From the IMG/VR virus record IMGVR_UViG_3300043443_000360, positions 1-64,000 of that record: 64,000 nucleotides of DNA; one strand, 5' to 3'. Position 1 is the stretch's first letter. Each line of letters begins with the position of its first letter. The notes beneath the pieces are model-generated. The model did no database searches. It was not told the origin of the DNA and saw nothing but the letters and a program-made list of their open reading frames with translations. Positions 31,776-62,190 of the stretch are shown one piece after another. This stretch comes from a virus. Taxonomy: Duplodnaviria; Caudoviricetes. The position numbers and the translations under genes are program-made.

Positions 31776-32060
31776 ATGAAGAAGCATGAGTGGAAAGATA
31801 ATGCCCTGTGCTTAGACTATGACACAAACCTATTCTTTGATAAATATGAAGAAGATGAACTTCTAAGGCCAGCAATAGACAAACTTTGTTCAACATGTCC
31901 AATAAGCAAAAATTGTTTCGCTGTTGGAATTACTGGTAAAGAGTGGGGAGTATGGGGTGGTGTTTATCTTGAAGGTGGAGTTATCTCAAGAGAATTCAAC
32001 AAGCATAGAAAGAAAGAGGATTGGTGGAATACATGGAGCAGTCTAACTATGTCAGATTAA
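31776..32060 (+). CDS. whiB: WhiB-family Fe-S transcription factor
   Basis: W...ALC...FF...C..CP....C...WGVWGG. Confidence 0.92.
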   Translation: MKKHEWKDNALCLDYDTNLFFDKYEEDELLRPAIDKLCSTCPISKNCFAVGITGKEWGVWGGVYLEGGVISREFNKHRKKEDWWNTWSSLTMSD

Positions 32061-49576: not shown

Positions 49577-50062
49577 CTACAAGTTAGATTTATCTATATG
49601 CGTAGCCCAATAATACAAGCATTTGTCGCAGCAAGGCTTATTGAATTCGCTATCTTTGGCGGTAGCGTAATGAGCATAAATAATAGGATCTTTACGATAT
49701 AGATTAGATTGATGTGTAGTAATAACACGTTTTAAATGTTCTGGCTTCATCCAAACAGGTTCATTATCTTTCCAGTTATGGCTAAAGTTAGACTTGAGGG
49801 TTCTAAGGTTTGAAACATTTTTCTCTGTCTTAATACCTCTCCAATCCGCTTCATAGACCATATGATCGATATAATCCATAAGTGAACGCTCAGCATTCTT
49901 CCACATAAGAACTGCTGGATGATTGCGCCAAGCACCAGACTCTGATGCGCCAGAGAGAATCTTCATAATTTGATAGCCCTCTAAGACTTGTTTATTAAGG
50001 CGCTTATTGTCTAAGGCTTGGGCGGAATATTCATAATCACTTGATGGTAGAAATGTTTGCAT
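49577..50062 (-). CDS. denV: Pyrimidine-dimer DNA glycosylase / endonuclease V-like
   Basis: MQTFLP...LDNKRLNKQVLE..Q...NHPAVLMW...HQSNLYRKD. Confidence 0.8.
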   Translation of the reverse strand: MQTFLPSSDYEYSAQALDNKRLNKQVLEGYQIMKILSGASESGAWRNHPAVLMWKNAERSLMDYIDHMVYEADWRGIKTEKNVSNLRTLKSNFSHNWKDNEPVWMKPEHLKRVITTHQSNLYRKDPIIYAHYATAKDSEFNKPCCDKCLYYWATHIDKSNL

Positions 50063-50428: not shown

Positions 50429-50450
50429 TATCCCCTGGTTTTTGTAAAAG

Positions 50451-50676
50451 TTATCCACAGGCTAAGGTGTTGTAGTGCCTTAATTTGTTAGGTTTTAAGG
50501 TGTTATATACACTTGATTGTTAGGTTTGATATGGTGGTTTGTTAGGTTTTGCTACACAGTTTGTCAGGTTTTGATAGTTATCCACAATGTACCTATTGTC
50601 TGGTTAAGGTACATTTGATCGGATATTATGGTTTGGAATGTACCTTTTTTGTTAGTTATCCACAGGTTTATCCACA
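50451..50676 (+). repeat. Four perfect DnaA boxes plus 22-bp-period repeats
   Basis: TTATCCACA at 50451, 50578, 50656, 50668; TGTYAGGTTT at 50486, 50518, 50540, 50562. Confidence 0.8.
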
Positions 50677-50713
50677 GATTAATCTTACTGATTATATTAT
50701 TAGACAAGGTATA

Positions 50714-50740
50714 AGTGGAGTAAAGTGGAGGATAGTGGAG
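50714..50740 (+). repeat. Triple AGTGGAG direct repeat with 10-bp period (MraZ-box-like)
   Basis: GTGGAG at 50715, 50725, 50735. Confidence 0.7.
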
Positions 50741-51028
50741 TATAGCGCATCTTTAAGGAGGGCCGTCGTAATCCCCTGGCCCAAACACCCCTATCCAAAC
50801 ACTTATACCACATATCCAAACATTTGTCAAACATTCATATCCAACATATGGGCCATGCATTATATACCAAACATTAGTGTTTGTCAACTTTGTTTTGACA
50901 CAAAACATATGACAAATATCTGAGGATTTTTTGTCGAATTTCGTAATAAATTTAAATAAATTGTTTGAAAATAAAAAATATCAAACAAAATGTTTGAAAA
51001 ACAATTGTTTTATATATAGGTGTTTGTA

Positions 51029-51298
51029 CTATAGGGATTTGGTATTATCAAAGGGATCTATTGGTACTCCCTGGGAAAATCCGTACACTTGCCCCAGGGC
51101 TTCGCCCAGGGCCTGGCCTGCGTCCAGGTCTTCGTAATCTATTGTGTCCGCTAAAAAGTCGGGGGTAAAGGAAAAGAATCTATTAACAATAGGAACATGC
51201 TTAGTAATAGATACAAAGCCATTCCACATAGAGTTAGAGAAAGCCTCATATTCTTTTGGATTTGTTTTTCTATAATCTGCAAAGTGTGATCTTCCCAT
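51029..51298 (-). CDS. Hypothetical protein
   Basis: Leaderless after TGATATAAT. Confidence 0.55.
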   Translation of the reverse strand: MGRSHFADYRKTNPKEYEAFSNSMWNGFVSITKHVPIVNRFFSFTPDFLADTIDYEDLDAGQALGEALGQVYGFSQGVPIDPFDNTKSL

Positions 51299-51477
51299 AT
51301 AAGAATTATATCATTGTTTGATATCACATGTGTCATGTTTGACAAACAAACAATTGTTTGGTAGAATGTCCAGGATTTTTTATACTCCTTCGTAATAAAA
51401 AGTTCCAGGAAATTGGAATGATCTTCGTAATGATGTTTGATATGTTTGTTTGATGCTCGGGCCGTAGCCCAGGATAG

Positions 51478-51768
51478 TCAGTCTTCCTGAGCCCCAGCGT
51501 CTAAGAACATGTCCTCTAATGTATCATAGTTTTGTTTAGAATCAACATTGAGTGCTGCACACAATAACTCCCAAGCCTCGTTAACATATATCTCACCAAC
51601 CTGAGTTGACTCTACGATATTTTCTGTTATCATGAAAGCCAGCGGCAAACCAATATCATTATATTCTACGAAATCATCAAACTCTTCTTCGTCTTTATAA
51701 TTCAGCCAAAAGTCTGCAAGTATCAAACATTTCTTAGAATAATCTATATTGGTTGGCTCTGATGTCAT
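51478..51768 (-). CDS. Early-region hypothetical acidic protein
   Basis: YNDIGLPLA motif; SD AAGGG. Confidence 0.65.
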   Translation of the reverse strand: MTSEPTNIDYSKKCLILADFWLNYKDEEEFDDFVEYNDIGLPLAFMITENIVESTQVGEIYVNEAWELLCAALNVDSKQNYDTLEDMFLDAGAQED

Positions 51769-51943
51769 GTCCCTTATACTCCTCGTTTGCTACTTCTGTA
51801 AGTAGGTTTAGTCTGTGATTTACTACTCCCCCGCCAGTTCTTGCTACATAAGTGCCAACTTGCTCAATGTCAAGTCGCAAATCTGCAAGCAGGTCACCAA
51901 TTTTGACGGCAACTTTTTCTTCTTGTGTCATTCTATGTCGCAT
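51734..51943 (-). CDS. Early-region hypothetical protein
   Basis: SD AAGGAG. Confidence 0.65.
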   Translation of the reverse strand: MRHRMTQEEKVAVKIGDLLADLRLDIEQVGTYVARTGGGVVNHRLNLLTEVANEEYKGHDIRANQYRLF

Positions 51944-52037
51944 AGTATTCTCCTTAGTTCATTGTATCAGAAAGGTGTGGGAGGGGCAAGCCACCCAATT
52001 AGCCTGCCCCATCCCTGATCAGTCTAGTGACCCATTT

Positions 52038-52385
52038 CTAGACTGTGGCAAGTGGCGAATAGGCAGCCACAAATTTATCCCATGGCACGGAAACATTATC
52101 AGTAACAGTCTTGTTAACAAAATCGATAACCACTGTTTGCTCACCTAGGTCAAAGTTATCACCTGATACAGCATAGATACCATATCCTGTTTCGCCTAGG
52201 ACGCTGTCTTGAATAAGATAACTAATCATCATTCTGGTCCCATATGATGAATCATTCCAGCGGGGCTTAGCATGCTCTAGCGCTGCAGCAATGTCAGACT
52301 CCCATTCGCTTTGGCCCCAATGTGAGTACAAAACTACAGATGAGTCAGTTCCGTCCTTGAATACAAAATTAATTCTTGCTCCCAT
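52038..52385 (-). CDS. Early-region hypothetical protein
   Basis: MGAR...LYSHWG motif; SD GAGGAG. Confidence 0.7.
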   Translation of the reverse strand: MGARINFVFKDGTDSSVVLYSHWGQSEWESDIAAALEHAKPRWNDSSYGTRMMISYLIQDSVLGETGYGIYAVSGDNFDLGEQTVVIDFVNKTVTDNVSVPWDKFVAAYSPLATV

Positions 52386-52821
52386 TTGCATACTCCTCTA
52401 TCTCTTTAAGTTGTTCTACTGTAGCACAGAAAGGGCAGCAATCAAAATCAAAGCCACCAAACTTTTCAGCAATTACTTGGCCATCATCTTCAAACTCAGC
52501 ACCGCAGTTCTCACAGCAATGCCAATAAGGGCTAACCTGCACCTGAATAGTAGTATTATCAGGGCACGGTACTTCAGTAATAAAATAACCAATTCTATTT
52601 ACAAAGTGCCAGCCATTCCAGATATAACTACCACCGTCGTCTCCATCACCGTATGTCCAGATACAGCGTGGGTCTTGTGATTTAACAAACTCAACCTCAT
52701 CGCCATAGGTCTCAAACATGGCACCGTCGAATGAAGCATTGTTGTCTATATGATTAGTGATTGGCTTAAACTCTTCTAGCCAGAATTCGAATGTTTGCTC
52801 AATAAAGGTTTCCATTGTCAT
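52369..52821 (-). CDS. Early-region protein with C-terminal zinc ribbon
   Basis: FETYG.E..FV, VNRIGY.IT, CENC...CPFC. Confidence 0.7.
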   Translation of the reverse strand: MTMETFIEQTFEFWLEEFKPITNHIDNNASFDGAMFETYGDEVEFVKSQDPRCIWTYGDGDDGGSYIWNGWHFVNRIGYFITEVPCPDNTTIQVQVSPYWHCCENCGAEFEDDGQVIAEKFGGFDFDCCPFCATVEQLKEIEEYANGSKN

Positions 52822-53027
52822 TCTGCCAATTCTACTGGAGAGATATATTGTTTGTCAAAAATGAGGTGGTATGCGGCAGATAATCCATCTACATAGCCAC
52901 TAGCCTCAGTACGTTCCATAGATACCATAGCATCGCTATAGTCATCCTCTTCCTCTGCCTTGGCTATTTCTAGAAAGTCTAAAGTAGCCTTGTCAATCAT
53001 TTGTTCAAGCATTTGTTGTGGGTTCAT
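52818..53027 (-). CDS. Small acidic helical protein
   Basis: ATGA coupling; GY...L...Y shared with neighbour. Confidence 0.6.
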   Translation of the reverse strand: MNPQQMLEQMIDKATLDFLEIAKAEEEDDYSDAMVSMERTEASGYVDGLSAAYHLIFDKQYISPVELAE

Positions 53028-53272
53028 TGGGTATCCTCTATCTGTTGTCTGTCTATAGATAAATTATATGTCATACAGTACATATCTGTCAAGGCCTGCA
53101 TATAACCTTCTAGCCATTCATACTCATCGCTTTGATCACAGCGCTCCAACTTCTCCTGACACTCAAGCATTTCTACTTTAAGGTGCCCATGCATGATATC
53201 AATTAGGGGAATAGATACATCCTCTAAAGACTTAACTAGATTATCAGGGATAAAGGGGTACTTAGTGCTCAT
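53024..53272 (-). CDS. Small acidic helical protein
   Basis: Coupled ORF. Confidence 0.6.
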   Translation of the reverse strand: MSTKYPFIPDNLVKSLEDVSIPLIDIMHGHLKVEMLECQEKLERCDQSDEYEWLEGYMQALTDMYCMTYNLSIDRQQIEDTQ

Positions 53273-53465
53273 CCAATACTCCTAGTAAGTGATAGCAGGC
53301 AATGATTTGACCATTATTAGAGATATCCTCAATCTCAAGGGTACGATAGTCATCGTCTTCATAGTTAGTATAGTTATCCATTTGCTTCTCAAGGAACTCG
53401 CTATCCTGCTCAAGGCTAAGGATATGTAGTTTGAGATACTCCTTGAATGTGTTGAGGTCTTGCAC
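53262..53465 (-). CDS. Small acidic helical protein
   Basis: Coupled ORF. Confidence 0.55.
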   Translation of the reverse strand: MQDLNTFKEYLKLHILSLEQDSEFLEKQMDNYTNYEDDDYRTLEIEDISNNGQIIACYHLLGVLDEH

Positions 53466-53611
53466 TAAACTTCCTCAACATCAATCATATTGACTTCTGC
53501 AAAGTGGGCATAACCCTCGTAGTCCCAGCCATACTCCTCTGCTTCTTCAGGTGTGTCTGCTTCTACCTCGTAGTTATACTCTACAATTACATTTACATTA
53601 TATGTTGGCAT
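53465..53611 (-). CDS. Small acidic protein (not in ORF track)
   Basis: MPTYNVNV...YEVEADTPEEAEE; SD AAGGAG. Confidence 0.6.
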   Translation of the reverse strand: MPTYNVNVIVEYNYEVEADTPEEAEEYGWDYEGYAHFAEVNMIDVEEV

Positions 53612-53628
53612 TTGTTTTCTCCTTTATA

Positions 53629-53835
53629 TTAATTATAAGGGTTGGAGTTGATTTTTACAACATTTGAAGGTGTGATACTAATCACAGGAGGCATTTGCTC
53701 AGGTTCCACGGCGGTACGGGTAACAAAAGTGTCCAGGGAGCAAACACAAGCGGGATCATGATTAGGAGTCTTATTAGTAATAACCTCCATTAAGGCATCA
53801 CAATCAGTACAAACATAACTATACTTAGTCCACAT
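53629..53835 (-). CDS. Small zinc-ribbon protein
   Basis: Y.CTDC...C.C. Confidence 0.55.
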   Translation of the reverse strand: MWTKYSYVCTDCDALMEVITNKTPNHDPACVCSLDTFVTRTAVEPEQMPPVISITPSNVVKINSNPYN

Positions 53836-54302
53836 TAGTCAAAGTACCCTTCTGCCCATAGGCCTTGCATAAAACTAATTGCTTTTAATAATCCCTCAAC
53901 CATAGGGTCTTTATCTACATAGGTAACATTAGAGTTTCTAATATAAAACAATTTAGCATCATGAACAGAATTGATCATTTCATCTAAGTCGTCTACTGTA
54001 TAGCCTAACATTATTCTACCTCTATTCCTGCATACTTAGCAATAGTGTTTAGTGTAGTATGTATATGGCAGTCGCAGTCTTCTCCACCCATATTGGCTTC
54101 AAATTCTAGATGAGAATAATTATCCTCATATATTTCATTAATTAGGTCATTTACTGTGTTTGGATATGTTGTTTGGGTCATGTATTAATTCTACAGCCCC
54201 AGGAAATTAATGTCAAGTACGTAATAAGATTTGGGGAAAAATCTTATGTGATCTTAATCACAAGCCCGAGAAAATCTCAACTCGGGGCCCCATTTACGCT
54301 TG

Positions 54303-54376
54303 CGATCACGAAGGGACTCGAACCCTCGACCTCCACCGTGACAGGGTGGCGTTCTAACCAACTGAACTACGTGACC
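54303..54376 (-). tRNA. tRNA-Asp(GTC)
   Basis: CCACC-CTGTCAC-GGTGG; GTTCGAGTC. Confidence 0.93.
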
Positions 54377-54379
54377 AAG

Positions 54380-54408
54380 TGAGCAGTTTTACATCATGCT
54401 CAGGATGT
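54380..54408 (-). ncRNA. Repeated H-type pseudoknot, copy 1
   Basis: ACAUC-cUGAGCAu-GAUGU-AAAAC-UGCUCA. Confidence 0.7.
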
Positions 54409-54437
54409 TGCGTTTCTGACGTCGCAAATTTATTTTA

Positions 54438-55460
54438 TCATGCTAATTGCATAACATTCTGTACAACTTTGAGCAGACGATTCTTTTCTGCGTTAATTGC
54501 AGGGTCAAAACCGCTTGCGCTTGCAAGAATTGATTCGTTAGAACCACCACGAGCAGAACGATACCAATCAAGGCGTTCTGTAAGTGCATTGAAAGCACCC
54601 CAAGCATTACCAGCAATCATACCATTAAATTCACCAGTGTAGATATCGTTAATGGTGTCAATTTTATTTTCCCACTTCTTTAGCGCACCCTTAGAATCTT
54701 TCTCAGGCTTTGCATAAGCAGCAAGAATAATATCGTTGAATTGCTTAGCGGTGACTTCTTTCTCGAACATAGCCTTAGCCATGATGTCGAATTCGTCCAT
54801 GTACGCATTAGCAAGACCAAGAGTCTCACGTGCAATCTGAATCTTACCCTCAGCAGTCTGAGTGTGACGAATCTTGAATGATTGCTTGATACCCTTATTC
54901 TTCTTACGACCTATGCCACCAAGAGCAAGATTAAGAGTGTTAGCGCATACAACACGAACAGGTGTAATGCTTGCTTGAATAGCAATCGAACCATCGTGTG
55001 ATGTGTTGATGAGCAAATAAGTTTTTACCTTATCTGCAACACCGCTAGGGTCTAGAACTGTCTCACGCTCAAGAGCAAGAGAGCCAAATACTACACGCCC
55101 ACCCTTGATTGCGCCAGCAGTCTCCCAGCGACCACCACCGTCAAGAATGTTATCACCAAATGAAAATAAATCTTCATTTTGTAGGGGTACATAACGCTCA
55201 CCAACAATTCCAAGAATGTCAGTTTGAGTTTTATCTGTAGGGTTAGTACGCAATACGTACTGATATGATTTATCACTTGTTAAATGGGTAGGGGTCTCTA
55301 AATCTTCCAGACGAACATTCCAACCATTGAGGTTTGCAGCCTCTAGCATTTCGCTTGTTGTTTTTTCTTCTGTAAAGACAGTACCCAATCCATGCCAAGC
55401 AGGTTCACGGAAAGAAGCGAAAGAGGTTTTTCCGTTTTGTGTTTCTAGGTCATGTGCCAT
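54438..55460 (-). CDS. DUF932 / TIGR03299-type phage-plasmid protein
   Basis: PAWHGLG, QNE..F, ETAG...GGR.VF, NTSHDGS, TPVRVVCANTL, RHT. Confidence 0.9.
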   Translation of the reverse strand: MAHDLETQNGKTSFASFREPAWHGLGTVFTEEKTTSEMLEAANLNGWNVRLEDLETPTHLTSDKSYQYVLRTNPTDKTQTDILGIVGERYVPLQNEDLFSFGDNILDGGGRWETAGAIKGGRVVFGSLALERETVLDPSGVADKVKTYLLINTSHDGSIAIQASITPVRVVCANTLNLALGGIGRKKNKGIKQSFKIRHTQTAEGKIQIARETLGLANAYMDEFDIMAKAMFEKEVTAKQFNDIILAAYAKPEKDSKGALKKWENKIDTINDIYTGEFNGMIAGNAWGAFNALTERLDWYRSARGGSNESILASASGFDPAINAEKNRLLKVVQNVMQLA

Positions 55461-55635
55461 GAGTTTTTCTCCTTTTTGTTGTTGATAGTTTAATTTTACA
55501 CTGTGGGTCTGACAATGTCAAATAGTGTACGTAATCATGGGGCAAATCGGACATTTTCTTAAGGTGATCTTAAACACATGTGATATTGATCACGCCCCCC
55601 GAGCCGCATATTTATGCAGTGCAGTGAATAAAAAA

Positions 55636-55696
55636 TGAGCAGTTTACGTGGCCGTGCTCAGGGCCCTTATCCAGTTTAGAGACATGTGACAGGTCT
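55636..55696 (-). ncRNA. Two tandem pseudoknot copies (variant 55668-55696 and copy 2 at 55636-55665)
   Basis: AGAC-cUGUCACAu-GUCU-CUAAAC-UGGAUA; GGCC-cUGAGCAc-GGCC-ACGUAAAC-UGCUCA. Confidence 0.65.
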
Positions 55697-55711
55697 ATTA
55701 GTAGCCCCCTA

Positions 55712-56140
55712 CTAAATATCGATTCTGTCAACACTGGCGCTGAGCCATGTGATGTAGTCATCGTTGTACTGAATGGTTTCGAAGTCAATATTGTTTACAA
55801 TATCTTCTGCATCTTCATCATGAGGTACCTGCATTGTTATGCTGTAAGTTACGGTAACCTCTGCTTCAATTTCTTTAGTTAATTCAAATCCACAAATGTC
55901 TGCAATCTCTTCTGCTTGTGTAGTTGAAAGAACATCGTCACGTAGTGCATCCATGGTCCACTCGTGCATGGAATCACGCATTCTCTGCATCTCTGCATTA
56001 ATTGCATATGAGCGCTGTAGATTATCTGATGAGCGGTCCTGCAGTGAAATAATCATCGCATCCTTTTTCTCAATTGCTTCCTGCAATGCAGCAATCTGTC
56101 GATTAAGGAATTCCGCTGTTGCTATTACTGATTGGTCCAT
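55712..56140 (-). CDS. Early-region coiled-coil/acidic protein
   Basis: Own TTGACA-17-TATACT promoter. Confidence 0.7.
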   Translation of the reverse strand: MDQSVIATAEFLNRQIAALQEAIEKKDAMIISLQDRSSDNLQRSYAINAEMQRMRDSMHEWTMDALRDDVLSTTQAEEIADICGFELTKEIEAEVTVTYSITMQVPHDEDAEDIVNNIDFETIQYNDDYITWLSASVDRIDI

Positions 56141-56323
56141 GGGGGCCTGCTTTCTGTTAGTTTGTTTACTTAAGTATACTGGTGGCCACTGACAATGTCA
56201 AGGACCCCCGTAGGGGTGAGTTCTTACTTACGACATTAGGCGAGATACTCACGAAACTGCCTCTGTTTCGATCCCCCCAGGGGACTTTCGCAGAAAATCT
56301 GCCTTGAACGCAGGGGAGAAAAT

Positions 56324-56354
56324 TGAGCAGTTTATACTGACTTACTCAGGTCAG
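56324..56354 (-). ncRNA. Repeated pseudoknot, copy 3
   Basis: CUGAC-cUGAGUAa-GUCAG-UAUAAAC-UGCUCA. Confidence 0.7.
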
Positions 56355-56363
56355 AATATCTAA

Positions 56364-56765
56364 TTAAAGATACTGAGCGATAGTCTTGAAAGTTGTAGCA
56401 TTTACAACTTCCTCGTCCGTCATTTTGAGAATACGAATTGCATTTTCAATTTCTGAAACTTCATAGCGACCAAGTTCTTGTTCAAGGTCAAGTTCAGGCT
56501 TCTTTGGCAATTTGATTTCATTAGCAGGAATTGTGAAACTAGCAGATACTTCTCCACGCCAATTCTCATGTGCAGAAACCTCTGCCTTGTTAATTTGCTT
56601 GACGATAAGTTCTGCAACTTCCTTAGCCCACGCCTTTTCTACCTTCTCGTAGTCCTTGCGCTTCTTTTCGTTGTTAGTAATTGCCTTTGCACTATTTGTA
56701 AGTTTGTCTTCAAGTGCCTTGATTACTTTTGCTGTTGATACTTTAACTGAGATTGCTCTAGCCAT
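56364..56765 (-). CDS. Early-region hypothetical protein
   Basis: SD AAGGA; highly biased codons. Confidence 0.75.
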   Translation of the reverse strand: MARAISVKVSTAKVIKALEDKLTNSAKAITNNEKKRKDYEKVEKAWAKEVAELIVKQINKAEVSAHENWRGEVSASFTIPANEIKLPKKPELDLEQELGRYEVSEIENAIRILKMTDEEVVNATTFKTIAQYL

Positions 56766-56798
56766 TGGGTTTTCCTTTTCTGTTAGTTGGGGGTATGT

Positions 56799-56830
56799 TG
56801 AGCAGTTTAATTATCTCATGCTCAGGAGAT
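56799..56830 (-). ncRNA. Repeated pseudoknot, copy 4
   Basis: AUCUC-cUGAGCAu-GAGAU-AAUUAAAC-UGCUCA. Confidence 0.7.
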
Positions 56831-56839
56831 TTAGTCAAT

Positions 56840-57007
56840 TTACTTTGCTGTCCAAGTTGTATAACGAGGTGTGCCATTTACATCTAACTTAACACGAACG
56901 CTCTGTCCGTCCTTGTTAGGTGTGATTTCAAGAATTGTTCCTGTAACCTTTGACTTCTGTGTTGTGTAGGTGTCGCCTACCTTGTATGTTGCTGTTGCTA
57001 CTGACAT
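56840..57007 (-). CDS. Small SH3/KOW-like protein (not in ORF track)
   Basis: MSVATATYKVGDTYTTQKSKVTGTI..., 55 aa, SD AAGGAG, own promoter. Confidence 0.7.
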   Translation of the reverse strand: MSVATATYKVGDTYTTQKSKVTGTILEITPNKDGQSVRVKLDVNGTPRYTTWTAK

Positions 57008-57102
57008 TTTTTCTCCTTTGTTAGTTGTTGTTTGTTATATTTAATTTTAGCATTTTTGAGATTTCTCGTCAAGTTATTTTTGAGATTTCTCATATTTTGA
57101 GA

Positions 57103-57273
57103 TTATTTAGAGGTCTTGACCATAGCAAGACGGCGTGAGCCATTTGCCAAAACCAAAGAAACTCTGGTAACCTTATTAGACATTGGTGTAAAGTCTGCAA
57201 TACGACCTGTAACGCCTGTCTTAGATGTAGTGAATAAATCACCAATCTGATATGTGTAACCTGAGATAGTCAT
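57103..57273 (-). CDS. Small SH3/KOW-like protein, paralogue of 56840 (not in ORF track)
   Basis: MTISGYTYQIGDLFTTSKTGVTGRI..., 56 aa, SD AAGGA, own promoter. Confidence 0.7.
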   Translation of the reverse strand: MTISGYTYQIGDLFTTSKTGVTGRIADFTPMSNKVTRVSLVLANGSRRLAMVKTSK

Positions 57274-57500
57274 TGGGGACTTCCTTTCTGTTTGGGTATA
57301 ATATAATTATAGAGTAAAAATCTCAAAAATACCAATCCAAATGACATTTTCCAGTGTGATAAACCCCACATCTTAACAGCGTGTTCTTAACTTGACAAAA
57401 CCATCTTTGGCCCCCCGAGCCCTTTCTGATCATGGCGGGGGATTTATTGCAACAAGAATAAATAAAATAACCAAAGTAAAATAAACGCAAAGGTTTTCAT

Positions 57501-58235
57501 TTATTTTTTACTAGCGCTAAATACGATATCACTTTTAGAGTATACACATAGCGAACAAGAAACACAAGCGGACCCTGCAGTGCTAATAAGTGGAATTGCT
57601 TTTTTATTTTCAGGACACTTAGCGCCAGGCTTTCCAATCATTTCTTTCATATCTGCTTGGCCTATTGCAAAATTCTTAGCAAGATATGCAAGGCGTACGC
57701 CATGATTATTTTTTAACTCTACGCCAGTTTTCACATTGGCACTATCTGTAGAATAATATAAAGATAGGTTAGGGATATCCTTTAGGATGAGTGCAGCAGA
57801 TTTTACACGAGTGTATACCCAGAATTGAATGTCAGGGTTTTCATTGATTACATTCTTCCATGCATATGTATAGAAATCATTAAAGAAATCTCCGTCCCAG
57901 TGAATGCGGAAGAGCATAGGGGCGTCTTTCTTTACACAATCAGTTTTAAACTCTGCAATCATTTCTGAAAGTAGAGTGTACATTGTTTCCATATCTGCAT
58001 TGCGTAGCAATTCCCAGTTATGCAATAGATTAACTTTTACGGTTGGGAATATCTTTTCCAATTTGCCTGCATAGCAAACAGTCTCACAGACAGACGTTGC
58101 GCCAGGACATGAATAATTTTTTCCTGCGGGTAGTCCGAAGGTGTTAGCAATTGCGGCCTGCTTTCCATTTTTTGTGACAAGATTAGCAACCTTTCTATCG
58201 TTAGAGCGCTTAAGTTTAAGTGTATTAGTAGTCAA
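57501..58235 (-). CDS. Gp88-like Cys-cluster (radical-SAM-like) protein
   Basis: FGLPA...CPGA...C...CYA, FRIHWDGDF, FWVYT, CP...C..C..C. Confidence 0.75.
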   Translation of the reverse strand: MTTNTLKLKRSNDRKVANLVTKNGKQAAIANTFGLPAGKNYSCPGATSVCETVCYAGKLEKIFPTVKVNLLHNWELLRNADMETMYTLLSEMIAEFKTDCVKKDAPMLFRIHWDGDFFNDFYTYAWKNVINENPDIQFWVYTRVKSAALILKDIPNLSLYYSTDSANVKTGVELKNNHGVRLAYLAKNFAIGQADMKEMIGKPGAKCPENKKAIPLISTAGSACVSCSLCVYSKSDIVFSASKK

Positions 58236-58654
58236 GGCCTAGGCTCATTTCTAGAGCAGCGTCTTCATGAGAATAAGAATTTGCTAATTCATCTAGCCAG
58301 CAGTGCTCACACATAGGCATAAATTCATCGCACTGATTTTCTTTGCATTTTGGGCAGATACCTGCATAGTATTCATCCATGAATTCATCATTTTCATATT
58401 TCATTAGGGGGTCTCCTTTTGTTCTTTAGATAAGTCTAGCATTTTTCTAGTGCTTTGTCTATTTCTTTTATATTGTTTTTTTGAAGGCACGGCAGAGGCA
58501 GCGTTAGATCTGCGTAATTCTTGCAGTCTACGTAATTCCTCTGGTGTCTTTTTCATAACTTAATACTAGCAAACATGGCTAAAAATGTCAATTTCTTAAA
58601 TGTGATCAATCTCACAAAACGGCTCGGGCCCCATTTATGCAGGGCAGTGAATAA

Positions 58655-58882
58655 TTATTCGTCTTCGTCATCAACTGGTACATACCAATTGAATGTAGCG
58701 TAGTCATCAACTTCAATTAAATCTTCTTCATCATAGTTATCTAAATACATTATTACATAACCATCTGCAAGTGGTGTGATACCAACTACCTGAACAATCT
58801 CACCATTAACTGAAATATAATCGTCAATCTCTAACTGATCGACATTGAGTACATCTACTTTTTTAAATTCCATATTCAACAT
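58655..58882 (-). CDS. Small acidic beta protein
   Basis: ORF chain. Confidence 0.55.
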   Translation of the reverse strand: MLNMEFKKVDVLNVDQLEIDDYISVNGEIVQVVGITPLADGYVIMYLDNYDEEDLIEVDDYATFNWYVPVDDEDE

Positions 58883-58895
58883 TGTAGCACCCATT

Positions 58896-59192
58896 TTATT
58901 CCCCTAAGCAATCAAAGCATTCGCAGTCAATACCATGAGGCAACCAAGCATCTAGGTGGTGAGCCTCAACGATAGCGTGTGCAGGTGCGTATTCTTCTCC
59001 ACGCCAAAATACTCCGTCTGGAAGTTTAATTGGCTGGTCATAGTCTTCTTCCCAATATGCATCTATGGCAGCAATACAAGGCTGAACCATTGACTTAGGG
59101 ACTGGAGGATAGTGATTAGCAACCAAGTGCATTTCAATACTACTTTCAAGGTCTAGAATGGAAGCAAGTTCCTGCGCTGTTGTGTATCCCAT
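58896..59192 (-). CDS. Hypothetical protein
   Basis: HL..NHYPP...EAHHL motif. Confidence 0.7.
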   Translation of the reverse strand: MGYTTAQELASILDLESSIEMHLVANHYPPVPKSMVQPCIAAIDAYWEEDYDQPIKLPDGVFWRGEEYAPAHAIVEAHHLDAWLPHGIDCECFDCLGE

Positions 59193-59194
59193 TA

Positions 59195-59410
59195 TTATTT
59201 TCCTCCTACATTTCCATTACGATAAAATATCTTAGTGTGCATCTTACCTGACGGCTCAGACAAGTTAATTGTGCGATAGTTATTAGCATCGCCAAAGTCA
59301 ATAAACTTATTAAATACATCTACTGCATCAAGTGCGTTATCATAGCGACCAACCCATTCAGGGCTAGTAGCGTTATCGTTAGTGCTAGTTACTGCGTATA
59401 GGTATTCCAT
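59195..59410 (-). CDS. Hypothetical protein
   Basis: Coupled ORF. Confidence 0.6.
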   Translation of the reverse strand: MEYLYAVTSTNDNATSPEWVGRYDNALDAVDVFNKFIDFGDANNYRTINLSEPSGKMHTKIFYRNGNVGGK

Positions 59411-59686
59411 TAGTCATTCTCCTTAGTGATAAATAATTGGTGAGGGTTGCAATCGCAACTTTCTGTATCATAGTCTATACCATTTCCAAAAAATAACCAA
59501 CCTGTGCCATAGCATAAATCGCAAGTAGTTATTTCTGCAACTAGTTCTTTCATCTTAGCCATTAGATAGCCCCTTCCTGAAATAAGCCTATTTCTAAATC
59601 TAGCAATTCGCTAGGTGTAGCATTAGATAAATCTACCCAACCTGCGCCGTCATTGTCAATTCTAAAAATTTCTACATATCCCATTA

Positions 59687-59902
59687 TTATTCACCAACCT
59701 TTACTGCAACTGTACGATAAGTTCTGCGACCAAAATTATTGTAGCCACTATTAGGTGCAACCTCAACAAGATAAGTTTCGCAACCCTCATACCAAACTGC
59801 GTGAGGGTGTTCCTCTGCTGATACAATTTCACCTTGCAAGGTGCGTGAGTAGTAATTAGTTCCTACAAGTAGGTCTTTAATTGAATATACATTTGCGGAC
59901 AT
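59687..59902 (-). CDS. Hypothetical protein
   Basis: SD AAGGAG, promoter upstream. Confidence 0.65.
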   Translation of the reverse strand: MSANVYSIKDLLVGTNYYSRTLQGEIVSAEEHPHAVWYEGCETYLVEVAPNSGYNNFGRRTYRTVAVKVGE

Positions 59903-60164
59903 TCAGTTCTCCTTTCAAGAGACTTTCATTAACTGATATAAATATCTTACACTATGTGGCTGACATTTTCAATTCGACACGCCGTAAGTGTTCAATATTT
60001 ATTTTTTCTTACTATGTAAGTCTAGCCTATTACTCATAAAATATCAACTTACTAGCGAGTATTCTTAAATAGTGAGACGCTCAAAGTCTGTGATAAAAAT
60101 CACATCGTACGTAAGGTTTTCCACAGCCTGTGGATAACTGCTCGGGCCATTTTAGTTGAAATTT

Positions 60165-60192
60165 CAAGCAGTTTTAGATCGTGCTCAGGATT
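60165..60192 (-). ncRNA. Repeated pseudoknot, copy 5 (weaker)
   Basis: aAUC-cUGAGCAc-GAUc-UAAAAC-UGCUUG. Confidence 0.6.
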
Positions 60193-60198
60193 CCTATT

Positions 60199-60345
60199 TT
60201 ATAGTTTTAGTTTTTCTTCTAATTCAATTATGTATTTATCTTTATAGTAAATCGTTACCATTGAATAAATTAACATTAGCATTGAAGCAAGCAACGCAAT
60301 TATTACAGCCCACACAGTCCATAAATCGAAATAGTATGTGTTCAT
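60199..60345 (-). CDS. Small membrane protein (not in ORF track)
   Basis: 48 aa, one TM helix, TAATG coupling. Confidence 0.5.
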   Translation of the reverse strand: MNTYYFDLWTVWAVIIALLASMLMLIYSMVTIYYKDKYIIELEEKLKL

Positions 60346-60518
60346 TATTTGTTACACGCCTCTCTAAACTTTTCAAAATCAAAATTAGCATTATCAGCAG
60401 AGAATAAATCTCCAAACTCATTTACCAAATCTTCAAAAGCAATTTCATGAATTACATCAGAGAATTGGCTAAGAATATCAGCAACAGCGACAAAAGTTTT
60501 TCTTGTGTATGTAGACAT
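60345..60518 (-). CDS. Hypothetical protein
   Basis: TRK.F..VA...DN..FD.EKF..AC motif. Confidence 0.65.
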   Translation of the reverse strand: MSTYTRKTFVAVADILSQFSDVIHEIAFEDLVNEFGDLFSADNANFDFEKFREACNK

Positions 60519-60703
60519 TAGAGAACCGCCTTTCCCTTTAGCGTTCCACGAACACCAAGAATATCGCAAGCGATTTTTACTGAAACGCCAACAGGCAATT
60601 TTTCAGGGTAAGTTGAGATGAACTGAGCAACCGCACCCTTTGAAGGAAGGTTGATTTTTGAAGTTGAACCATTGAAGGTTTCTAGTGTTATAGTGTAAGT
60701 CAT
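60518..60703 (-). CDS. Hypothetical protein
   Basis: SD GAAAGGT. Confidence 0.65.
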   Translation of the reverse strand: MTYTITLETFNGSTSKINLPSKGAVAQFISTYPEKLPVGVSVKIACDILGVRGTLKGKAVL

Positions 60704-61075
60704 TTTGACTACCTTTCATTTTAAGTGATAAGACTATCCTATCACGGGGGTCTGACAAATTAGGGCATTTATTTGCTAGGCTCACTGTGATTTACACCAC
60801 ATTTATTTGCTAGGCTCACTGCCTTATTTATCTTTATTTAATTTTATAGTAGTAATACTAGCATAGAAATCTCAAAAAGTCAAGACGACACGCCGTAACT
60901 TAACTGTGTTTTAAGTCACAACATAAAGGGTGCAAAACGGACATTTCGCCTCGGGCCGCTTTTAGCGGTTTTTTATTTTATTTTTTCTAAAATCTTTTCT
61001 AATTCTTTTAGTTGTTCTAAATTAAGATGATCTAAATTAATTGCATCGCTAAATCCAAATAAATCTTTTTCCATT

Positions 61076-61258
61076 TTAGTTTTCCTTGCTTTCTGCTAAT
61101 TGCTCACGAAATGATTTTGCAATTTCGTTTTGCTGTTTTATTGTGAGTGAAGCCCACATGTATCCCATGAGATAAGCGTTTCCGCTATCTTGAATTCCAC
61201 TACGAATTTGAGTAGACATTTCTTTTATTTCTTTTAAGAGTTCTAAATTAGCGCTCAT
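61076..61258 (-). CDS. Hypothetical protein
   Basis: SD AGGAGG. Confidence 0.6.
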   Translation of the reverse strand: MSANLELLKEIKEMSTQIRSGIQDSGNAYLMGYMWASLTIKQQNEIAKSFREQLAESKEN

Positions 61259-61419
61259 TATTTTGCCTCCTTGTATAGGTAGTCCCATGCCTTACGGCAC
61301 ATCAAGATAGATTCGCAATTATCGCAACATACGATATCGCTATTTAGTTCTAAGTCATACATATCTACGCTAGTAGATGACGCCCCACATACGGAGGGGA
61401 TAGTGAAATAAGTACTCAT

Positions 61420-61674
61420 TTACTTACCTTTCTTTCTAGAATTAAACTTCGCATACTTTACGAATAGTTTACGATAACCACATGTATCGCAATAACGATT
61501 AAAGTAAGGCTGTCTAGTAGAAACACCTTGAACATCTGTCCATGTTTCATGCTTACAATTAGGGTCATTACCCTTTACATTATAGTCACAATAGAAAGTG
61601 GCTACATGTGACCATGATGTGTAACCACCAGCAATTTTAGCGTCTAACGCATTTTGGATATCTGTATAATTCAT
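61420..61674 (-). CDS. Hypothetical Cys/His protein
   Basis: Coupled ORF. Confidence 0.55.
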   Translation of the reverse strand: MNYTDIQNALDAKIAGGYTSWSHVATFYCDYNVKGNDPNCKHETWTDVQGVSTRQPYFNRYCDTCGYRKLFVKYAKFNSRKKGK

Positions 61675-61856
61675 TATTTAGATACCTCCCATTTAGACCA
61701 CATACCTAGACGGTCACCGTCTGAGTCAATATAGAAACTTTCTATATTTTGTTCACATACTTCGCAGAATGTGTAGCATGTATCATTATGGAATGATTTA
61801 GCAGATTTATTAGGTGTATGTGTTTTACATACTTCGTTAATTGTTAGTGTAGTCAT
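61674..61856 (-). CDS. Small zinc-binding protein
   Basis: C..H...C..C; SD GAAAGGT. Confidence 0.6.
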   Translation of the reverse strand: MTTLTINEVCKTHTPNKSAKSFHNDTCYTFCEVCEQNIESFYIDSDGDRLGMWSKWEVSK

Positions 61857-62114
61857 TTTAGACCACCTTTCATTTTTATTAAGTTTACTTCTTTTTCAAC
61901 TTTCTATACATAGAAGTCTAACATAGGGGTCTGACATTTTTAGGGGTACAAAACGGACATAAGGGATATATGGGATTGTGAGGTACATCATGTGGATAAC
62001 TTGAGCGTAAATACGTAGTGTGATGTGCGTCATGTGGATAACTGCCCGAGTCGATGTCCCAAATGTCCGATTTATCCTGTGACATAGATAACATGCGACA
62101 CGCCGTGCTAAGGC

Positions 62115-62143
62115 TTGACTTTTGGGAAAGTGTGTGCTAGTAT
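62115..62143 (+). promoter_or_regulatory. Rightward sigma70-type promoter at the divergence point
   Basis: TTGACT-17-TAGTAT; CRP-like site 62078-62093; palindrome TTGAGA-AAG-TCTCAA at 62158. Confidence 0.65.
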
Positions 62144-62190
62144 TATCCTATAAGAAATTGAGAAAGTCTCAATAAATGAAAGGTAGTCAA

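Follow-up and report, generated by a model that had tools for sequence, protein, structure and literature searches.

A conserved control region with a putative replication origin among the leftward early genes of a freshwater phage

The window analyzed in this study comprises the first 64 kb (64,000 nucleotides) of a 98,493-bp virus contig (Caudoviricetes; IMG/VR record IMGVR_UViG_3300043443_000360) with 36.7% GC and an estimated completeness of 89%. Between positions 50451 and 62172 lies an early region in which short DNA sites resembling the binding sites of the bacterial regulators DnaA, CRP and MraZ are concentrated; these sites, and the origin-like block and promoters in which they are set, are the subject of this report. 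The initial annotation had described the region as intergenic DNA. We found instead that it is an array of small open reading frames (ORFs) on the minus strand, read leftward, with about ten gaps of 160-370 bp and a single gap of 600 bp. About 71% of the region is coding, and 20 of 21 sites are located in the non-coding 29% (binomial P = 2.6e-10).

The host of the phage is predicted to be actinobacterial. The prediction is based on a gene for a WhiB-like protein (31776-32060), on a DnaE polymerase with its nearest relatives in Streptomyces phages (55% identity to DnaE of the BillNye group), and on a homologue of mycobacteriophage L5 gp88 (57501-58235). Besides DnaE, the phage carries its own DnaB-like helicase. 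The public runs containing the stretch are freshwater metagenomes from eight studies, and a search for a near-identical phage record returned none. A scan of genome contigs with the phage WhiB recovered only phage contigs. These contigs of the phage group have been placed in metagenome-assembled genomes (MAGs) labeled Acidimicrobiaceae, Flavobacterium, Saccharibacteria, Polynucleobacter, Methylococcus, Bifidobacterium, and Arenimonas. These placements are probably binning errors, and the labels are unfit for host prediction. Two genome samples (401 and 301) reached via MAG bins consist of small genomes with 25-47% GC, which are not actinobacterial and provide no host evidence; WhiB was sought in five of these small genomes and found in none, and the Crp and palindrome counts from the same five were set aside.

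The DnaA-box consensus TTATCCACA occurs eight times in the 98-kb genome, and seven of these copies lie inside the early region: at 50451, 50578, 50656, and 50668 on the plus strand and at 60129, 61991, and 62033 on the minus strand. Together with TTTTCCACA at 60117 they account for the eight TTWTNCACA matches of the initial annotation. All four perfect TGTGA-N6-TCACA palindromes of the genome (53671, 54247, 58601, and 60089) were detected in the early region, as were five more with one mismatch, all three genomic copies of the 10-mer CGACACGCCG (59975, 60886, and 62096), and the sole triple GTGGAG repeat (50715-50740, 10-bp period). The initial annotation had listed each of these classes, and they were compared with 300 dinucleotide-preserving shuffles of the region. 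Seven strict DnaA boxes were observed against a shuffle mean of 0.18, four perfect palindromes against 0.01, and nine palindromes with at most one mismatch against 0.47; the 10-mer (three copies) and the triple repeat (one copy) averaged 0.00 each. None of the 300 shuffles attained the observed counts of boxes, palindromes, 10-mer, or triple repeat. When coding tandem repeats were excluded, the most over-represented 11-mer genome-wide was AGTTATCCACA, with six copies observed and 0.08 expected. Its excess over a reversed control in a non-actinobacterial genome sample (12 vs 0 in genome G426, 14 vs 0 in genome G485, and likewise in many bacterial genomes) is not host evidence and supports no claim.

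Relatives were collected by scanning viral contigs for the gp88 homologue. More than 570 were obtained, and 80 loci were kept, making 81 with the window (gp88 homologues 80-88% identical). The 81 loci contain 453 perfect palindromes, 416 strict DnaA boxes, and 196 copies of the 10-mer, all restricted to the early zone. The triple repeat was found in 35 loci, each time within the origin block and nowhere else. The median number of strict DnaA boxes per relative is three in the promoter zone and three in the origin zone, and the extended box consensus GTTATCCACAGG is retained. An alignment of the DNA upstream of gp88 demonstrated that palindrome, -35, and -10 are kept in 62 unique relatives while the flanks diverge. 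Conservation in related phages, which the initial annotation had proposed as a check, was thus borne out by hundreds of copies of the same sites. Three other candidates for family motifs, GCCCGAG, ATTACGTAC, and an ARG-like repeat, proved to be window-specific and were rejected. A 20-nt match, AAATCGGACATTYGGGACAT, between the window (~62050-62070) and Streptomyces phage BillNye (119389-119410) was likewise discarded as a case of deep conservation because it is absent from the 80 closer relatives.

The basal unwinding module of bacterial origins has been defined as two DnaA boxes separated by no more than 3 bp, then a spacer of up to 16 bp and a series of three or more NAN trinucleotides, or DnaA-trios, written as (.A.){3,} (PMC8287927). 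A similar arrangement was identified in an origin-like block between early genes (50430-51028), which is non-coding and contains no credible ORF. DnaA boxes were called against the consensus 9-mer with up to two mismatches allowed, and four perfect, co-oriented boxes were found at 50451-50676. Two of them form a tandem pair on the plus strand with a gap of 3 bp (50656-50676). A run of eight trinucleotides with a middle T, which is A on the opposite strand, begins 2 bp past the pair (50679-50702). In the relatives the tandem pair recurs in the origin zone with both boxes in one orientation, and a run of 4-8 trios comes after every unique pair of this zone (32 of 32); pairs of the promoter zone are followed by at most three, and on the control side the number is mostly 2-3 (range 1-4). 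DnaA-box spacings are 11-12 bp or multiples of ~11 bp, and all boxes of the origin zone have the same orientation. The block is predicted to be a DnaA-dependent origin of chromosome type joined to iterons, since box pair, spacer, and trios fit the published definition of the unwinding module.

The other elements of the block differ in their conservation. The remaining two co-oriented boxes (50451 and 50578) flank four TTGTYAGGTTT iterons with a 22-bp period (50485, 50517, 50539, and 50561, plus strand). This part of the block (50451-50586) is poorly conserved in relatives, and the iterons evolve fast. Such rapid change is usual for iterons that are bound by a replicon-specific protein. A promoter matching the consensus TTGACA-N17-TATAAT at 12 of 12 positions (50859-50887, minus strand) reads into the triple repeat and the DnaA boxes, and is conserved in relatives. 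Beyond it is a near-pure A/T tract with inverted TGTTTGA repeats (50940-51020); inverted AAGGTACAT repeats and CCAAACA repeats were also detected in the block. The core formed by promoter, triple repeat, A/T stretch, and tandem boxes is at least 90% conserved, vs ~57% for the block as a whole (36 unique relatives).

The triple repeat GTGGAG-N4-GTGGAG-N4-GTGGAG (50715-50740, plus strand) starts 12 nt past the trios, on DNA that DnaA would need to open. It is an exact match to GTGGWGNNNNGTGGWGNNNNGTGGWG, the string used to search for MraZ-binding repeats in Bacillus subtilis, where it is found once per genome, at the mra promoter (bioRxiv 10.1101/2022.02.09.479790). The likeness to MraZ sites noted in the initial annotation is therefore confirmed as a pattern (GTGGWG-N4, three times). 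The position is different: the phage repeat lies in the origin block rather than at an mraZ/dcw operon promoter, and no mraZ gene was found in the phage. In 34 of 48 relatives the 4-nt spacers vary and every GTGGAG hexamer is intact. The triple may just as well belong to the repeats of an unwinding region, or serve as an iteron bound by a phage protein.

TGTGA-N6-TCACA is the consensus site of CAP/CRP, with GlxR and Rv3676 as actinobacterial homologues (PMC10187061). The phage palindromes agree with the CRP/GlxR site, including the 6-bp spacer, and have positional preferences for T6 and A11, that is, T after TGTGA and A before TCACA. Their placement is fixed. Of 56 palindromes beside a strict TTGAC promoter, 38 have their center 17/18 nt upstream of the -35, eight at 29 nt, and five at 38/39 nt, and the palindromes at these spacings all lie on one helix face relative to the -35. 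Among palindrome variants, uncompensated single mismatches are in excess (359 vs 41 in the control) and compensated changes are not (42 vs 43). Selection therefore acts on the TGTGA/TCACA sequence and not on base pairing, which excludes the palindromes as hairpins.

The promoters themselves are also over-represented: 65 matches of sigma-70 type were found vs 42.7 ± 7.8 in shuffles, and the best are on the minus strand within the gaps. Perfect palindromes at 53671-53686 and 54247-54262 are centered 18 nt upstream of TTGTAA-N17-TATAAT (53660-53632) and 38 nt upstream of TTGACA-N17-TAGAAT (54216-54188), respectively. The first of these, with its promoter, lies in the 3′ end of a minus-strand ORF for a zinc-ribbon-like protein of 68 amino acids (53629-53835). 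Two abutting CRP-type sites with one and two mismatches (55563-55594) precede TTGACA-N17-TAAAAT (55521-55493), and a site with one mismatch (57355-57370) precedes the promoter at 57326-57298. The perfect palindrome at 58601-58616 has its center 17 nt upstream of TTGACA-N17-TAGTAT (58591-58563). The palindrome at 60089-60104 is combined with an inverted pair of DnaA boxes (60117-60125 and 60129-60137) upstream of two promoters (60047-60019 and 59972-59944).

In the promoter zone, DnaA boxes are paired, either in tandem or inverted; the pairs precede promoters by 50-200 nt and nearly always lie 5′ of the palindrome, so that the order DnaA box, palindrome, promoter is constant. A divergent control region (61857-62190) contains two DnaA boxes 42 bp apart (61991 and 62033), each abutting a CRP-like half-site. 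A CRP-type site (62078) and a copy of the 10-mer (CGGCGTGTCG, 62096) are also present, and of the two promoters in the region, one reads rightward (62115-62143) and the other, of the TGTCAGACC type, reads leftward (61928-61936). In total, about ten intergenic cassettes appear to be ordered as gene end, putative RNA pseudoknot, DnaA-box pair, CRP-type palindrome, and promoter. The gene-end element, CCTGAG...AAACTGCT, was observed directly past stop codons on the minus strand at 54382-54404, 55638-55662, 56326-56350, 56801-56826, and 60167-60189. It is present in 226 copies in 76 of 81 loci, and a comparison with Rfam gave no family match. Another observation is a pair of CAGTGAGCCTAGCAAATAAATG copies 12 nt apart (60760-60812), with a CRP-type site with one mismatch between them (60786) and a TGTCAGACC-type promoter downstream.

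The 10-mer is a -35-adjacent promoter element. Its copy at 59975-59984, which reads CGGCGTGTCG on the minus strand, lies 2 nt upstream of the -35 TTGAAA, and the copy at 60886 lies 2 nt upstream of the -35 TTGACT of the promoter at 60883-60855, with a CRP-type site with one mismatch next to it (60905-60920; element 60886-60920, minus strand). In relatives the position is always 2 nt upstream of the -35 TTGAC, in the context ACGGCGTGTCG-NN-TTGAC (85 unique contexts); copies in reverse orientation serve promoters of the opposite strand. The initial annotation had related the 10-mer to the GACAC core bound by WhiA, a resemblance that is weak. GACAC alone is not enriched (14 vs 9.9 expected), and its complement GTGTC is a 5-mer sitting 3 nt upstream of the -35 within a conserved 11-mer promoter element. 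In the solved WhiA/WhiB complex, WhiB occupies 7 bp beside the -35 and GACAC is further upstream, at a spacing said to vary. The WhiA link is weak because the specificity of the conserved 11-mer goes well beyond that of GACAC, although the phage's own WhiB leaves room for a role of WhiA/WhiB.

Two tandem pairs of ARG-box-like sites had also been proposed, and this class was not supported. ARG boxes were sought as pairs of 18-bp imperfect palindromes near TNTGAATWWWWATTCANW, 2-3 bp apart. The proposed pairs are two copies of a ~30-bp repeat (55603-55640 and 58626-58663) with four mismatches per box, and the only tandem pair (55603 and 55623) deviates from the ARG box to the same extent. ARG-like matches are present at chance frequency (42 vs 36.7 expected by length), and the repeat was absent when sought in the 80 relatives. 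Of the five motif classes first described, the DnaA box, the palindrome, the 10-mer, and the triple repeat are thus retained and the ARG box is not.

Several motifs of the same cassettes have no host look-alike. The motif TGTCAGACCCC-N2-TGnTATAAT has 192 copies in relatives, on the early strand only; TGTCAGACCCC is a spacer motif, and the sequence is A-rich where a -35 would be expected. In the early region it is located at 55506-55514, 60749-60757, and 61928-61936 (minus strand). By analogy, this promoter class resembles activator-dependent middle promoters. The motif AAATGTCCGWTTT (ATGTCCGWTTT) has 212 copies in relatives and is found at 55548, 59896, 60938, and 61954 on the minus strand and at 62063 on the plus strand; AAAYCGGACAT clusters beside the DnaA boxes of phage BillNye. 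Both motifs are promoter elements of the phage family. At least three conserved motif classes in these cassettes resemble no host regulator site, which makes the stretch a dense control region of a general kind and not the dedicated panel of host boxes that had been suggested.

Other genes of the region include those for a DUF932 protein of 340 amino acids (54438-55460) and for a pyrimidine-dimer DNA glycosylase homologue adjoining the origin block (49577-50062), both on the minus strand. A gene for tRNA-Asp(GTC) (54302-54376, minus strand) is part of an early promoter cassette, with the putative pseudoknot of the gene end on one side and the CRP-type palindrome on the other. Immediately downstream of the 58.56-kb promoter is a minus-strand ORF for a conserved basic protein of 50 amino acids (MKKTPEELRRLQELRR...; 58405-58556), the DNA of which is well conserved across 62 relatives.

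Taken as a whole, the stretch is best read as the control region of the leftward early genes, with a replication origin embedded in it and with origin and promoters controlled in cis with the help of host factors. We hold this reading with slightly better than even confidence. In the proposed mechanism, host DnaA would bind the origin boxes, spread onto the trios, and open the DNA; an iteron-binding phage protein and an MraZ-type factor may modulate this opening. At the early promoters, a dimeric protein of the CRP family, most likely host Crp/GlxR, would bind the palindromes and tune transcription from the sigma-70-type promoters, with another signal from the host supplied by DnaA at its boxes farther upstream. 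The best candidates for the binding proteins are DnaA and a CRP-type protein, both of the host. Three exact consensus matches, one of them accompanied by trios, are hard to explain by unrelated phage proteins, and the likeness to DnaA, CRP, and MraZ sites is far beyond chance, extending in the case of the DnaA box to the flanking positions. In agreement with the initial annotation, neither the DnaA C-terminal domain (DnaA_C), HTH_Crp_2, cNMP_binding, nor MraZ was recognizable in the phage contig, and a Pfam/PHROG scan of about 35 ORFs in or beside the region returned no DNA-binding match.

Several points weigh against this reading. The sites were scored against the consensus sequences of known regulators, and neither the presence of Crp nor the use of TTATCCACA as the DnaA box need hold for the host. 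About 35 small early proteins have no recognized fold, and any of them could bind DNA; moreover, since the contig is 89% complete, a phage homologue of the regulators could sit in the missing part. If the -35 is taken to start at position -35, the palindrome centers fall at about -52.5, -64.5, and -74 and miss the class I positions of Escherichia coli by 2-9 nt. Palindromes and 10-mer were sought in BillNye, and both were absent. The Streptomyces DnaA-box consensus is TTGTCCACA, and BillNye keeps TTATCCACA instead, which would also fit a conserved phage protein.

BillNye is a distant relative that shares the tandem TTATCCACA cluster, and in this respect it was counted as support for control by host DnaA. 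It has three close-set boxes, two in tandem and one inverted (119428-119460), and a fourth box 250 bp away (119707). All of them lie in a non-coding gap of 350 bp that separates two short genes on the reverse strand. DnaA-trios were sought after the BillNye boxes, and none were detected.

It is possible, if rather doubtful, that the sites are bound solely by phage proteins, such as an early repressor or activator and a replication initiator, with DnaA, CRP, and MraZ specificity arising by chance or convergence. On this view, operators and iterons of the usual phage kind would make up the array, and the host would have no part in its control. The motifs TGTCAGACCCC, ATGTCCGWTTT, and ACGGCGTGTCG are consistent with such a system: they share the cassettes, TGTCAGACCCC is confined to one strand, and as conserved motifs that look like no host site they make it certain that phage-specific factors are active there. 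The lack of annotation for the scanned early ORFs, the fast-evolving iterons held by the origin itself, and the constancy of TTATCCACA in two phages as different in GC content as the window phage (37%) and a Streptomyces phage (53%) point in the same direction. On the other side, three separate exact matches (DnaA with 11-12 nt including flanks, CRP with 10 nt and a 6-bp spacer, and MraZ with 18 nt) are improbable for proteins outside these families, and no domain of the DnaA, CRP, or MraZ family was found in the phage. Trios beside boxes are meaningful for DnaA itself only, and the promoters that fire first precede any phage protein and must therefore use host factors alone.

A more ambitious proposal is that three global regulators of the host, DnaA, a CRP-type protein, and MraZ, jointly control the phage origin and the early promoters, and that the replicating sites also draw these proteins away from the host and thereby halt its cell cycle, which would make the array both sensor and decoy. 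We regard this as improbable. If true, the phage would read replication status through DnaA, energy status through the CRP-type protein, and the division program through MraZ, with an MraZ-type site placed directly on the DNA that DnaA has to unwind.

The decoy alone, an array selected in multiple copies so that replicating phage DNA soaks up DnaA, CRP, and MraZ and arrests host replication, division, and carbon control, is quite unlikely. The sites are of perfect consensus, presumably of high affinity, and numerous in each genome, as the palindrome total of the 81 loci indicates. The promoter-zone DnaA boxes lack trios and for this reason are not origins, which would suit a decoy, and some titration would inevitably accompany the replication of so many perfect sites. 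However, a decoy has no need of fixed geometry, yet each class shows one: the origin boxes are followed by trios, the promoter sites keep helical phase and order, and the 10-mer stays next to the -35. The sites are also limited to promoter cassettes and origin rather than scattered over the genome. Cis-acting control is favored over a decoy because every class has such a working geometry. The sites described in the initial annotation are upheld as real and conserved, and of the two functions suggested there, sensor or decoy, the decoy is the less likely given the trios, the helical phase, and the constant order.

That the matches are artifacts of chance or composition, or the palindromes RNA or DNA hairpins, is highly improbable: the DNA is A/T-rich and the weak ARG-box and GACAC matches are at chance level, but the shuffles, the hundreds of conserved copies in relatives, the excess of uncompensated changes with none of compensated ones, and an Rfam match in the region to the tRNA alone refute this explanation for DnaA boxes, palindromes, 10-mer, and triple repeat and leave it standing for the ARG-box part.

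Parallels to parts of this control region are found in several known systems. P1 oriR, RK2 oriV, and pSC101 are iteron origins that also use DnaA boxes. The phage block shares with them the DnaA boxes flanking direct-repeat iterons, the A/T-rich tract, and quick evolution of the iterons; unlike them, it has no recognized Rep-like gene beside it, and the 98-kb actinophage that carries it is of lytic type and itself encodes a DnaB-like helicase and DnaE. Cyanophage promoters carry host NtcA and PhoB boxes, and lambda and P1 use host DnaA. As in these cases, promoters and origins of the window phage would read host physiological regulators, although the host phylum and regulators are different and several host-type site classes are joined in one cassette architecture. 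Mycobacteriophage L5 and the window phage both repeat one short site many times in the short intergenic gaps of the early arm, and the window phage has a homologue of L5 gp88. The L5 sites, known as stoperators, are asymmetric 13-mers that follow the direction of transcription and bind the phage repressor, in contrast to the palindromes and DnaA boxes of the window phage, which occur in either orientation and without a recognized repressor gene.

With the basal unwinding system of bacterial oriC (Richardson/Pelliciari/Murray, PMC8287927) the block has in common a co-oriented box pair 3 bp apart, a short spacer, at least three trios (4-8 with central A in this phage group), and a repeat-bearing or A/T-rich stretch beyond. 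It differs in not lying between dnaA and dnaN, in having additional 22-bp iterons, and in carrying the GTGGAG triple where the chromosomal unwinding region would be expected. The promoters share with class I CRP promoters and Crp/GlxR sites (PMC10187061) the palindrome, its T/A preferences, a location upstream of the -35, and steps of ~10.5 bp on one helix face. However, class I centers are at -61.5, -71.5, and -82.5, and the phage sites recur at about ten promoters of one phage. The MraZ repeats of the dcw/mra promoter (bioRxiv 10.1101/2022.02.09.479790) likewise consist of three GTGG[A/T]G hexamers with 4-nt spacers, whereas the phage copy is beside an origin and not at a cell-division operon promoter; the pattern comes from Bacillus subtilis and may not be that of actinobacteria.

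Three features appear to be new: a chromosome-type module of boxes and trios in a phage, an MraZ-type repeat on this module, and a recurring cassette in which the early promoters of one lineage, about ten in number, combine CRP-type palindromes with DnaA boxes. The lineage is abundant in lakes, as judged from the eight metagenome studies and the more than 570 related contigs, and it probably infects freshwater actinobacteria that are uncultured and grow slowly. Because the sites are numerous, short, and perfect, these claims are directly testable, and the unwinding module would provide a compact natural test case for the model of origin opening. If host DnaA, a CRP-type protein, and MraZ do read the sites, the state of the host with respect to replication, energy, and division would act as a gate on infection, which would bear on how phages cope with oligotrophic, slowly dividing hosts.

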